From an uncultured Acidimicrobiaceae bacterium (GTDB taxonomy: Bacteria; Actinomycetota; Acidimicrobiia; Spongiisociales; UBA5794): a DNA stretch of 64,000 bases. A program made the translations under genes and the position numbers. Every line of letters begins with the position of its first letter. Position 1 is the stretch's first letter. Shown here piece by piece: positions 46,458-49,430 of the stretch. The stretch covers positions 8,711 to 72,710 of the forward strand of contig CAYWPC010000006.1 in the NCBI GenBank assembly GCA_964460075.1, in the 5' to 3' direction. The notes below the pieces were generated by a model. It had not been told where the DNA came from. It worked only from the letters and a program-made list of their open reading frames with translations, and made no database searches.

Positions 46458-46531
46458 GGGGCTGTAGCTCAGCCTGGCAGAGCACTTGACTGGCAGTCAA
46501 GGGGTCAGGGGTTCGAATCCCCTCAGCTCCA
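46458..46531 (+). tRNA. tRNA-Ala (anticodon GGC). Integration target.
   Basis: Acceptor stem GGGGCTG/CAGCTCC with G3-U70; anticodon loop CTGGCAG; T-arm GGTTCGAATCC. Confidence 0.85.
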
Positions 46532-46556
46532 CGGGAGAGAGAAACGCTGGAACCCT
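46496..46556 (+). repeat. attL-like direct repeat (3' half of tRNA-Ala plus ~25 nt)
   Basis: GTCAAGGGGTCAGGGGTTCGAATCCCCTCAGCTCCACGGGAGAGAGAAACGCTGGAACC recurs at 49371-49430 with about 5 mismatches. Confidence 0.8.
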
Positions 46557-46558
46557 AG

Positions 46559-47460
46559 CCATGGCTGGGGTTTCGGCGCGTCTGGAGGTGATTCGTCGGG
46601 TCGTTCTCAAGGTCGTGTTCGGGTCGAGAGTCCGCGAGGAGTCCGCGGGTCCGCTGGAAGTCTGTGTCGAGGAGGTGGGGAGAGATCGCGCGTCAGGGTG
46701 AGGCGCCGATCGGATCGAGACTCGTCGTAAGGATCCGGCGTTCCAGACCAGGATCCGGTCGATCATCGAACAGAACCAGCGGGTGCTCGAGCGGCTCGCT
46801 GAGTGAGCGTCGCGTACCTCGACCTCGCCGACTTCCCTGTGACCGTCGAGTCCGGAGCGAGACCCGGTACCCAGGGTTCGATTGCACGTGTACGTGCAAT
46901 GTGGCCCACAGATCGGTGCTGCGGGTTGGCGGGTGGTGTTGGTGTACCGGTAGCGTGGCGTTCTTGTCGGGTGCAAGTCTCCATCCGCTGAACGCCCATT
47001 GAAGAACCGTCGTAGTGCTTCGGCCTCTCTCGATGGTGCTTTGGTTGCGCCAACCCCGAAGTGCAGTCACTCGATTCGCGCCGTATCCATTGGATAGGCG
47101 GTCTCCGTTGCACTCCACGCCCATGGGCGTTGTCAAGCCACACGATCGTCTTGCCGCGAGTAACTGGTTGGACGAGGACGCTCACATCGCTCTTACCAAG
47201 ATCGGACGAAGGCTTCGCCCGTCACCACCACTTATCGGTTCAGTCAATCGGCGAGCAAGGCGCGATTGCCGTGGATGCGGCTTCGTGGCTGTCGTCACAC
47301 GATGGCGTCGATAACACTCCAGCATGGAGTCGGTATAGCGACGGTGTCTGAGCGGCTGGGACACGCCGACCTGAACATCACGGTGAAGATCTATCTGAAC
47401 GGATCAGGGGAATCAGATCGCTCCGCCACAGAAACACACGATGCGGCACTCCACAGGTGA
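46559..47460 (+). pseudogene. Tyrosine recombinase (phage-type integrase) remnant, frameshifted
   Basis: Box-II-like LRHTMASITLQHGVGIATVSERLGHADLNITVKIY in one frame at 47266-47460. A box-I-like RLRPSPPLIG lies in another frame. No single intact ORF. The 5' limit is uncertain. Confidence 0.55.
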
Positions 47461-47586
47461 CGGCCGGACGCCTCCCACGGAGGAAACGAAGGGCCAGATC
47501 TATGGGTCGATACGGGCAGGTAGAACCCACTTGGGACTCTTTTAGATTGATGCGGGTGAACGAGAATCACCCGGGATTGATTGTGT

Positions 47587-47721
47587 TCAGTGACCGAACG
47601 TGTTGTCGAGAGACTGGTTGGTGTGCGACGCCTTCTTGGCCTTCTTGGCAAGACGTTTTTCCTTGAGGGTCTTCTCAGCAACCTTCCTTGAACCCTTGCC
47701 ACCCTTGTCCTTGTTCGCCAT
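47587..47721 (-). CDS. Unannotated 44-aa Lys-rich basic protein (MANKDKGGKGSRKVAEKTLKEKRLAKKAKKASHTNQSLDNTFGH)
   Basis: Not in the ORF track (below 60 aa). A strong RBS AGGAGG sits 6 nt before the ATG. Inside the integrated element. Confidence 0.5.
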   Translation of the reverse strand: MANKDKGGKGSRKVAEKTLKEKRLAKKAKKASHTNQSLDNTFGH

Positions 47722-47978
47722 CGGAGCCTCCTGACTGATGACCGGAGTGGTAACCATGGAACCAGTGTCTCACATCACGACAAACCGCGGAGCGAACGCG
47801 TCCCTAACAAGCCCAAACATATGCGTTGTTATGGGTGGGTGTGGACGATATAGATCTGGAGGATGGCGCACGGTGGGGTGGGCGTTACCAGAGTGCAGTA
47901 CGCTGCGAGTGGTGAAACGGGAACATCTAGGTATTGGAGTCTGGCGTGGAAGCTGATCGGGAGAGAGCAGAACGCCAT

Positions 47979-48119
47979 GAGCGGGAGCGTAAGGAAGAAC
48001 ACGAGCGCAGTGAGCAGAGACGTAAGGAAGATCGTGAGCGGGCTGACCAAAGGCGTAAGGAAGAGCGTGAGCGGGCTGACCGTAGGCGTAAGGAAGAGCG
48101 TGAGCGGGAGGGTCATGGT
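47979..48119. repeat. Tandem repeat, 4 x 33 bp (unit ..CGTAAGGAAGAGCGTGAGCGGGCTGACC..)
   Basis: The CGTAAGGAAG phase recurs at 47988, 48021, 48054 and 48087. The period of 33 nt is frame-preserving. The plus frame encodes an RRKEERERAD-type charged repeat. Confidence 0.8.
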
Positions 48120-48206
48120 CGGAGCGGGAGTTAGCTTCGGCTGATCGGTTCCTCACTTCGGCGGGGGGCGCTTCTTGTTTGGCGACATGTACTTGGAGGA
48201 TTCCTG

Positions 48207-48347
48207 ATGAAGTCCAAGCCGATTATCGATGGTGGAAGGCAGCGGTGCGTGGATTGTGGCCACCCTCGCAGGGAGCACAGTGATAATCACAGGTGCACAG
48301 TGCCGAAGTGTGAGTGTCTCGAATACCAATTGCCAGAGGCGAACTGA
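48207..48347 (+). CDS. Unannotated 46-aa zinc-ribbon protein (CxxC...CxxxxCxC)
   Basis: MKSKPIIDGGRQRCVDCGHPRREHSDNHRCTVPKCECLEYQLPEAN. A GGAGGA RBS lies 7 nt upstream. Below the ORF-track size cut-off. Confidence 0.5.
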   Translation: MKSKPIIDGGRQRCVDCGHPRREHSDNHRCTVPKCECLEYQLPEAN

Positions 48348-48462
48348 ACTCTGGACCTGGCTCGCTGAGGCCAGTCTTAACCGGTGACCGGTGTGGTTCG
48401 CCCGGCTTGGCCTGGTCGCTCATAGGTGTCGTTATGGGCGAGCTCCGCAAGAAGGCTTGCTA

Positions 48463-48978
48463 CTAGGAAACGGCGGTCGTCACCGTTACACCAGTCTCCT
48501 CACTGGTTGCATGGCGCCACGAGTCTCCGTTCCATTGGAATTGAACAACAATGAATCGGGCACCATCTCGTGCCGTCACGACCCCTATCGGGACGCCCAC
48601 CACATTGGATGCAAGCTCCTCAATCGGACCTACGTAGAGGATGACACCGTCACTCTCCACCACGCCATCGACAAACAGAGCATCATCTTCGGCAGGGCTG
48701 ACGAACATCGCATTGGGGAATTTGGCTACAACCTCGTTGCGAACCTGCTCAGGCATTGGGAGTTCCTGACCTTCGGGCGTGTCCGAGGTGATGAGTTGCT
48801 TGCGTACGAACATTGGGCGAGCTTGACAATCAGGGCAACCGATTTCGACAGCGTTGACCGACGATGTTGCTCGGGTCGCTCCATCGATTGCCGAAGCCTC
48901 GCTACCCGACCCAGTACAAGCCGCTACAAGGACCGACAAGGCTACGACCGCTGCCAGAATGTGTCGACTCCTCAACAT
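48463..48978 (-). CDS. Hypothetical lipoprotein
   Basis: Signal peptide plus lipobox LVAAC|TGSG. Preferred over the overlapping plus-strand ORF 48391-48990. Confidence 0.5.
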   Translation of the reverse strand: MLRSRHILAAVVALSVLVAACTGSGSEASAIDGATRATSSVNAVEIGCPDCQARPMFVRKQLITSDTPEGQELPMPEQVRNEVVAKFPNAMFVSPAEDDALFVDGVVESDGVILYVGPIEELASNVVGVPIGVVTARDGARFIVVQFQWNGDSWRHATSEETGVTVTTAVS

Positions 48979-49370
48979 ACTGTCTTCTAACGTCGCTGAT
49001 TGGTTTCGTCGTTCGGACGCTCATGCACACTGATCGGTTCCCTCAGCCTACGGCAGCATGCGTGATTCCGACTAGCCCGGCCGCCCAGGTCCGGCAATGT
49101 GGGCGAGTTACGCTTACGGACGTGACCACATGGGTGCCAGCTCGAATGTAGCGCCGAATTCGATGACTCAAGGCTTGCGGGAGTGGTGATCGATATCGTC
49201 GGGCCATGGGTTGTGTGTTCATGGTCGAGACCCCGCTGAGCGCCTTCGGGGTATCTATCCGCAGCAACGGCTCCGTGCGCGCAATGCGCCAAGGGCTATC
49301 GTGCGTGACACGTGTAGGGCTTTGAAACTCTTGCACCGCAAGGGCTATAGAAGACGCGATGTGTCCGGTG

Positions 49371-49430
49371 GTCAAGAGGTCAGGGGTTCGAATCCCCTCA
49401 GCTCCACGGCAGAGAAATACGCTGGAACCT
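49371..49430 (+). repeat. attR-like direct repeat (partial copy of the tRNA-Ala 3' end)
   Basis: GTCAAGAGGTCAGGGGTTCGAATCCCCTCAGCTCCACGGCAGAGAAATACGCTGGAACC. No 5' half of a tRNA precedes it. Confidence 0.8.

Follow-up and report, generated by a model that had tools for sequence, protein, structure and literature searches.

Tyrosine integrases that insert elements into the 3' ends of tRNA genes are known in actinobacteria from the actinomycete integrative and conjugative elements (AICEs; pSAM2, SLP1) and from mycobacteriophages, and decayed islets linked to tRNA genes are common. In the Islander database, the regenerated target gene and a displaced fragment of it mark the two ends of a genomic island (Hudson, Lau and Williams, 2015; PMC4383910); the fragment was a 3' fragment in 3760 of 3919 islands, an anticodon-centred crossover was found in 2083 of the 3919, and island lengths peaked at 13.6 and 39.9 kb. 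The anticodon loop is one of the two classic crossover sublocations, following the classes of Williams (2002; PMC4383910). Decay of integrative and conjugative or integrative and mobilizable elements (ICEs and IMEs) can produce cis-mobilizable elements (CIMEs), derivatives that have kept the attachment sites attL and attR and have lost the genes for integration and transfer (Pavlovic et al., 2004, via PMC5704250). Here we describe a 2.9-kb islet beside the tRNA-Ala(GGC) gene that follows rsfS in an uncultured Acidimicrobiaceae bacterium (GenBank assembly GCA_964460075.1, contig CAYWPC010000006.1, positions 8,711 to 72,710). This stretch of 64,000 nt was analysed as a whole and is referred to as the window; all positions are those of the window unless another contig is named.

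The islet is enclosed by two copies of a direct repeat, of which the left one (attL) overlaps the tRNA gene and the right one (attR) carries a 3' fragment of the same tRNA (Table 1). An intact tRNA, a 3' fragment in direct orientation and an integrase remnant between the two make up the textbook signature of tyrosine-integrase integration, and we consider it likely that the islet arose by integration into tRNA-Ala(GGC) and subsequently decayed. A preliminary description of the window, made from the sequence alone, had already proposed a decayed tRNA-integrated element with attL and attR, and this proposal agrees with what was found for the tRNA, the repeat, the position of the anticodon loop, the remnant and the cargo at related loci. 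The tRNA gene at the left boundary is complete and looks functional: it scored 67.4 bits against the Rfam model (gathering score 29), its cloverleaf fold was calculated at -32.9 kcal/mol, and ARAGORN placed it at 46458-46532, one nucleotide longer than first described (46458-46531).

The two copies of the repeat lie 2875 nt apart and are 86% identical over 73 nt according to the repeat finder, the 10 mismatches falling in the outer parts. Blastn-short aligned 46496-46554 with 49371-49429 (93.2% identity over 59 nt, E = 6e-20), which nearly reproduces the boundaries of the preliminary description (46496-46556 and 49371-49430, about 5 mismatches), and found no third copy anywhere in the window. 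The exact core of 32 nt, GGTCAGGGGTTCGAATCCCCTCAGCTCCACGG, occurs twice in the window compared to 0 expected occurrences in 100 dinucleotide-preserving shuffles. Along the cloverleaf, the identity between attL and attR is close to chance 5' of the anticodon loop and reaches at least 90% in the segment that begins with the 3' strand of the anticodon stem, includes the T-arm and the acceptor strand and ends 27 nt past the tRNA, so that the identity falls off within the anticodon loop, which is, with the T-loop region, where a crossover is expected. The fragment at the right boundary is thus a displaced part of the same tRNA in direct orientation, as in Islander islands. A whole decayed tRNA at attR was considered and rejected because the match GGGCTATAG upstream of the fragment was equalled in 392 of 2000 shuffles and in 330 of 1766 genomic segments and is therefore at chance level; the earlier statement that a tRNA 5' half is missing from the right copy is thus confirmed. 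The repeat finder detected no arm-type repeats beside attL or attR.

Between the repeats lies the C-terminal part of a tyrosine integrase. Within it a 64-aa open reading frame (ORF; 47266-47460) matched positions 132-167 of the 172 positions of Pfam PF00589 (E = 1.7e-6, 28.3 bits compared to a cutoff of 27.1), and a 98-aa stretch matched PHROG integrase families (E = 1.4e-8) and was 30-45% identical to the C-terminal end of annotated integrases from 360 phage and 140 plasmid records. A word-indexed homologue search using the integrase fragment gave no matches and an exhaustive HMMER search, which yielded 3319 matches, was needed. The closest intact integrases, P0007 (431 aa), P0008 (299 aa) and P0010 (316 aa), all from metagenomes, were 56-58% identical to the remnant over their last 66-78 residues, sharing with it the catalytic Tyr and the motifs LPW(I/V)RLHGLRHT and SxRLGH, but unlike the remnant they are full-length and include box I. 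Using tblastn, residues 158-297 of P0008 aligned to 47029-47451 in a single frame (39.6% identity over 149 aa), and P0007 aligned to the window with 56% identity over 78 aa. The contigs carrying intact relatives of the integrase (L044, L045) contained no tRNA and shared neither attachment site nor cargo with the islet.

The box II peptide noticed in the preliminary description matches both PF00589 and the PHROG integrases. Two other details of that description need correction. The remnant was said to lie immediately inside attL, yet about 470 nt intervene, and in this segment (46560-47028) no integrase sequence was found in any frame using Pfam or a lenient tblastn search with seven intact relatives. 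It was also described as frameshifted, which we could rule out since one frame covers the whole of 47029-47460; what this frame shows in the multiple alignment is two in-frame stops, at 47095 (TAG) and 47161 (TAA), and the loss of the N-terminal two-thirds. The beta-hairpin Lys (PKC), Arg-II, the His of LGH and the catalytic Tyr (KIY) are retained, the HxxR motif reads RGCR with Arg in place of His, and box I (Arg-I; GLRRGEALAL in relatives) as well as the N-terminal domains are absent. Neither the complete set of catalytic residues nor the uninterrupted ORF of an active tyrosine recombinase is present, and in place of the integrase gene that Islander expects inside an island there is a C-terminal pseudogene fragment only. 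The similarity to intact relatives breaks off at about 47029 while the frame is kept, which points to a deletion rather than to gradual decay. An integrase of 370-430 aa ending at 47460 would moreover start to the left of attL, so that DNA must have been lost and not just mutated.

The same locus was found on a Joint Genome Institute (JGI) contig (3300023442, Ga0256751_1000106) and on Logan unitigs from SRR9849955. Over 11,055 positions the JGI contig and the window differ at only 5; at one of these, 47161 (T in the window, C in the JGI contig), the TAA stop becomes CAA. Such variation of a stop between near-identical populations is in keeping with neutral drift of a gene that is not under selection. 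The integrase remnant is genuine, but truncation and nonsense mutations have left it dead, and no other integrase of its family is encoded in the window. Two of the Logan unitigs, L035 (starting at 49380) and L037, stop at the repeated 32-nt core, as is expected of an assembler using k = 31 when both copies are present in the sample, which fits the repeat. A third unitig, L001, ends at 46481, inside the tRNA and 22 nt short of the core.

We therefore suggest the following course of events, in which the integration itself and the direction of the decay are inferred. An element encoding a tyrosine integrase would have recombined site-specifically into tRNA-Ala(GGC), crossing over at the anticodon loop or close to it; its attP would have carried the 3' part of the tRNA and about 27 nt beyond it. 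The complete tRNA would have been regenerated at attL (46458-46559) and the original 3' fragment displaced 2.9 kb downstream, where it would now form attR (49362-49434). Through at least one deletion the element would then have lost the 5' two-thirds of its integrase gene, and possibly much else, and the remaining 143 codons would have gained two stops and lost a catalytic His. Having no working integrase, the islet would be unable to excise alone and would have become a fixed part of the chromosome; its surviving cargo would be four small genes that still look functional, encoding a Lys-rich protein of 44 aa, a Glu/Arg-repeat protein of 66 aa, a zinc-ribbon-like protein of 46 aa and a lipoprotein of 171 aa. 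An integrative plasmid-like element, a satellite and a prophage are all conceivable as the parent; searches of phage, plasmid, viral and metagenome collections yielded no parent element.

Compared to the described systems, the islet shares with Islander islands a regenerated tRNA at one boundary, a displaced 3' fragment in direct orientation at the opposite one, an identity block that starts at the anticodon loop, and integrase sequence between the repeats. It differs from them in being only 2.9 kb long, in having a pseudogene fragment for an integrase, and in containing no other mobility gene. In its end state it is similar to CIMEs, since the attachment sites are kept (with their identical core of 32 nt), the recombination module is lost and cargo remains; CIMEs, however, were defined in Streptococcus from known parent ICEs, whereas none was found for the islet. 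With AICEs and mycobacteriophages it shares an actinobacterial host, a tyrosine integrase and an att identity block that covers the tRNA 3' part and runs past its end, but it carries no replication gene, no FtsK/Tra-type transfer gene and no phage structural gene, and membership in either group can therefore not be claimed. The islet is thus best described as an apparently fixed, CIME-like remnant of a tRNA-integrating element, which would today be a passive cassette flanked by attachment sites.

Table 1. Coordinates of the islet, its attachment sites, its genes and its flanks (positions in the window).
Feature	Position	Strand	Evidence or remark
rsfS (ribosome silencing factor), left host flank	46047-46442	+	NCBIfam TIGR00090, E = 1.3e-31; 131-aa PF02410 gene call on identical contigs
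Intact tRNA-Ala(GGC), putative integration target regenerated at attL	46458-46532	+	ARAGORN; Rfam RF00005
attL copy of the direct repeat	46487-46559	+	Exact core 46503-46534; high identity from 46497 (3' strand of anticodon stem) to 27 nt past the tRNA
Imperfect palindrome across the attL boundary	46540-46583	+	Inverted repeat, 26-nt arms, 81% complementary
DNA between attL and integrase remnant, ~470 nt	46560-47028		No Pfam match (any ORF), no Rfam match, no similarity to intact integrases
Tyrosine-integrase pseudogene, C-terminal ~143 codons, one frame	47029-47460	+	Pfam PF00589; PHROG; tblastn
Lys-rich 44-aa protein gene, net charge +9	47587-47721	-	ORF; JGI call; GGAGG ribosome-binding site ahead
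Glu/Arg-rich 66-aa protein gene	47934-48134	+	Contains the 33-bp (11-aa) tandem repeat 47987-48108
Hairpin and T-rich tract between Glu/Arg-rich and zinc-ribbon genes	48148-48179	+	Terminator-like site; block conserved in L137
Zinc-ribbon-like 46-aa protein gene	48207-48347	+	13 homologues; GGAGG ribosome-binding site
Lipoprotein gene, 171 aa, lipobox L-V-A-A-C	48463-48978	-	ORF; homologues P0001, P0002, P0004
Gene-free DNA inside the element beside attR	48979-49361		No Pfam or Rfam signal above threshold
attR, displaced tRNA-Ala 3' fragment and 27 nt	49362-49434	+	Exact core 49378-49409
SDR (short-chain dehydrogenase/reductase) oxidoreductase gene, right flank	49855-50688	+	NCBIfam PRK06194, E = 1.5e-69; exact protein on identical contigs

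The locus was compared with its counterparts in relatives by two scans. The one anchored on NadD, using one genome per GTDB species, returned distant relatives only, an Actinomycetota metagenome-assembled genome (MAG) at 53% identity and an Acidimicrobiia MAG at 48%, and neither had a tRNA after rsfS. The one anchored on RsfS in metagenomes returned 80 loci, the best at 65-69% RsfS identity. A tRNA-Ala(GGC) gene was located downstream of rsfS in 19 of the 24 loci checked, which indicates that the linkage of rsfS and tRNA-Ala(GGC) is ancestral. The SDR oxidoreductase, the pyridoxal phosphate-dependent (PLP) decarboxylase and the island proteins were encoded at none of the 80 rsfS loci, and the sequence directly after the tRNA varied by lineage, usually opening with a terminator-like hairpin. 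The content of the island is consequently not ancestral to the tRNA site; conservation of the same content at this locus in relatives, named in the preliminary description as the observation that would speak against an insertion, was not seen at their rsfS-tRNA-Ala loci. Terminator-like hairpins occupy in relatives the same position after the tRNA as the palindrome across the attL boundary, which may be a hairpin supplied by the element.

One of the best-matching loci, L047 (69% RsfS identity), encodes in the region L047 4629-5952 an intact tyrosine integrase of 380 aa on the opposite strand, which ends about 40 nt from tRNA-Ala(GGC) and is only 28% identical to P0007. Two further loci (L046, L052) share the sequence of L047 directly after the tRNA. 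No displaced tRNA fragment was found in L047 within the 5 kb examined. An integrase of another type at the same tRNA indicates that the rsfS-linked tRNA-Ala(GGC) is a recurrent integrase-associated site in the lineage, and marks it as a hotspot of repeated integration in a group of actinobacteria that is poorly sampled.

The small genes of the cargo were examined for conservation in related metagenomic actinobacteria. The Lys-rich ORF of 44 aa, the Cys-rich ORF of 46 aa and the lipoprotein ORF of 171 aa reported in the preliminary description are all present. Of the tandem repeat of 4 x 33 bp that it also listed, the repeat itself stands (47987-48108, period 33, 3.7 copies, 85% matches), but it is not a separate DNA feature and is instead coding sequence within the 66-aa Glu/Arg-rich gene. 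A 51-aa homologue of this gene lies directly upstream of a zinc-ribbon gene in L137. The Glu/Arg frame of the window matched it best (61% identity over 54 aa, 70.5 bits, compared to 47-55 bits for the other frames), the differences across the repeat in this frame were 9/15/26 at codon positions 1/2/3, and the gene in the window has exactly one 33-nt unit more. The best match in this frame, the excess of third-position differences and the whole extra unit together identify the 33-bp repeat as an 11-residue coding repeat in a conserved gene. Iterons or other non-coding DNA were considered for the repeat and ruled out by the conservation of the frame in L137 and the third-position excess. The 93-aa gene called across the repeat on the JGI contig (L034 8009-8290, window 47863-48144) is not in the conserved frame and is probably wrong.

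The zinc-ribbon-like protein has 13 homologues (60-87% identity), nearly all of 46 aa, in whose alignment D8, G10-C14, C17-P20, E23, H24, C30-C35, C37, Y40 and P43 are invariant; the invariant Cys and His residues are C14, C17, H19, H24, C30, C35 and C37. The differences from the homologous genes in L136, L137 and L138 at codon positions 1/2/3 (11/6/25, 6/8/15 and 11/10/25, respectively) show a third-position excess, as do those between the Lys-rich gene and its homologue in L136 (9/9/19), which is 68% identical and located 8 nt upstream of the zinc-ribbon gene. All three micro-protein genes thus have a coding-type substitution pattern. In L138 and L139 the zinc-ribbon gene occurs alone, beside an AsnC-type regulator, and on the JGI contig it was left uncalled. 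Its only PHROG match was a weak one to a family of unknown function (E = 0.0022), and neither the AlphaFold model of the protein (pLDDT, predicted local distance difference test, 70.9; best Foldseek E = 1.4) nor a PDB profile search (E = 0.59) gave a significant hit; the Lys-rich protein had no match among PDB sequences. The hairpin with T-rich tract that precedes the zinc-ribbon gene has its counterpart at about 8545-8575 in L137; in the window it may act as an attenuator and so determine how strongly the Glu/Arg-repeat and zinc-ribbon genes are expressed relative to each other.

Adjacent pairs of the Lys-rich, Glu/Arg-rich and zinc-ribbon genes recur at unrelated loci in these relatives (L136 9858-10141 and L137 8368-8735, to be compared with 47587-48347 in the window), so that a cargo first called unusual is a recurrent set of small genes and not a random oddity. 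Tentatively, and with less than even confidence, we propose from these comparisons that the Lys-rich, Glu/Arg-repeat (51-66 aa) and zinc-ribbon proteins could form a previously undescribed functional module of Acidimicrobiia-like actinobacteria, which would occupy shifting loci and would here be cargo of a tRNA-integrating element. If so, the linkage of the trio in three genomes and at three loci under purifying selection would reflect a common function and not chance, and a trio that works together would be a new small-protein module, which might be nucleic-acid-binding or regulatory, or stress-protective. With its linkage drawn from three genomes, the trio is to be read as a candidate, a lead and not a finding.

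The homologues of the lipoprotein (P0001, P0002, P0004) are 54-70% identical to it with the lipobox conserved, and they are located in differing neighbourhoods without tRNA, integrase or other island content. Its AlphaFold model (pLDDT 69.3) gave no significant Foldseek match, the best (E = 0.02, TM (template modelling) score about 0.3) being to LptE/NTF2-like folds. On the JGI contig the gene was called as 97 aa (L034 8609-8902), compared to 171 aa with signal peptide and lipobox in the homologues.

None of the four cargo proteins had a significant match in Pfam, PHROGs, NCBIfam or PADLOC, or to PDB sequences in the searches run; the 0 matches in PADLOC for all of them do not support an anti-phage defence island. 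Phage structural, replication or regulatory genes were not found, the PHROGs matches being limited to the integrase and the weak one of the zinc-ribbon ORF. No transfer genes were detected using Pfam, PHROGs and NCBIfam, no replication initiator, FtsK/SpoIIIE-type or type IV secretion domains were present in the ORFs of 46560-49361, and no trace of a relaxase, of conjugation or of another mobility gene remains in the islet. In nucleotide comparisons the island matched none of 50,697 phage records (blastn) and showed no similarity to plasmid records; viral contigs contained integrases at 32% identity or less only. The tetranucleotide usage of the island falls in the top 2.3% of windows of the same size, which, like the unrelated loci of the cargo homologues in relatives, speaks for integration.

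Several observations weigh against integration followed by decay. The GC content of the island (58.6% compared to 59.6% for the window, 20th percentile) is not distinct; the roughly 470 nt that separate attL from the remnant and the roughly 380 nt beside attR are without explanation, although the latter segment (48979-49361) presumably holds the promoter of the lipoprotein gene and DNA of a former attP arm. The small cargo genes are not visibly within integrase-bearing islands in relatives, and only their placement between the repeats suggests that they arrived on a mobile element. A pattern for an empty site, in which the flank right of attR stands at tRNA-length distance after the tRNA 5' half, had 0 exact matches in the JGI metagenomes; the unitig ends mentioned above (L001, L035, L037) are uninformative on this point, and the nearest relatives, at 65-69% RsfS identity, are too distant for conserved downstream flanks. 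One might accordingly suppose that no integration took place, the block being ancestral, the right repeat a local duplication of the tRNA-Ala 3' part or a decayed second tRNA-Ala, and the integrase fragment mere debris. The host-like GC content and the ordinary chromosomal contexts of the cargo homologues in relatives would suit such a history, as would a weak tRNA-like fold covering 49317-49409, where a match to the Rfam transfer-messenger RNA (tmRNA) model stayed below threshold (22.8 bits, gathering score 47). We regard it as highly improbable, because the chance-level similarity to the tRNA 5' half at attR argues against a decayed whole tRNA, because a direct 3' fragment that begins at the anticodon loop, together with an integrase remnant enclosed by the two copies, is the exact signature of integration, and because 0 of 80 related rsfS loci carry the block after the tRNA.

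Integration and decay may have involved more than one element, and part of the likelihood given above to integration and decay, clearly the smaller part, goes to a composite origin. Two elements would then have inserted in tandem at the same tRNA, and a later deletion would have taken out the attachment site in the middle along with the 5' part of one integrase gene and the greater part of both elements, so that 46560-47028 and the cargo would derive from different elements. This would account for an integrase that is abruptly truncated despite an intact attL, from which about 470 nt of unrelated DNA separate it, and for the space after attL being too short for an integrase of 370-430 aa ending at 47460; accretion in tandem with subsequent decay has been described (PMC5704250), Islander lists 125 tandem arrays (PMC4383910), and a different integrase is found at the same tRNA in L047. 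The window nevertheless contains no third or chimeric attachment site, and the same facts follow in fewer steps from one internal deletion in a single element. A different question is whether an islet formed by integration and decay is still mobilizable in the manner of a CIME, being excised or co-transferred by a related integrase acting in trans or together with an adjacent related element. The identical 32-nt core in attL and attR speaks for this, and cis-mobilization of CIME tandems has been observed elsewhere (PMC5704250). We consider it unlikely here, as no integrase of the same family is encoded elsewhere in the window, the repeat has diverged in its outer parts, with 10 mismatches over 73 nt, arm-type repeats were not detected beside the attachment sites, and neither a circular-junction nor an empty-site sequence was found in the metagenomes scanned.

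Probably formed by integration into tRNA-Ala(GGC) and decay, the islet is a routine genomic scar of a well-known kind that involves no new mechanism. Only its cargo is mildly unexpected, in that the small genes belong to a recurrent, conserved and unannotated micro-protein trio, and the locus thereby provides a pointer to a conserved micro-protein family that gene callers partly miss and that profile and structure libraries do not recognise. It also corrects automated annotation in three places, namely the frame of the tandem repeat, the shortened call of the lipoprotein and a 52-aa 'gene' that is a fragment of the integrase.

Some further observations were made at the locus and its counterparts. 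Between attR and the start of the SDR gene there are 420 nt of gene-free DNA (49435-49854) without domain or RNA-family signal, which is unusually long for so compact a genome. In L047, ACCCTCTGATCAAAGTCTCA, a perfect repeat of 20 nt, is present in two copies shortly before the start of the integrase gene, and ARAGORN also called a permuted 'tmRNA*' at L047 4611-5211; this call and the tmRNA-like match at 49317-49409 look like artefacts of a tRNA-Ala-type acceptor stem and T-arm, only the one in the window having been checked. L137 contains at 2305-4865 an integrase split into one ORF with PF02899 and another with PF00589, next to tRNA-Arg(CCT), together with a HEPN/nucleotidyltransferase pair, and this region is another decayed island, located across tRNA-Arg(CCT) from the pair of Glu/Arg-rich and zinc-ribbon genes. 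In the window ARAGORN identified seven tRNA genes in total, and six of them (Leu, Lys, Pro, Gly, Arg, His) are packed into 3.2 kb at 16755-19942.

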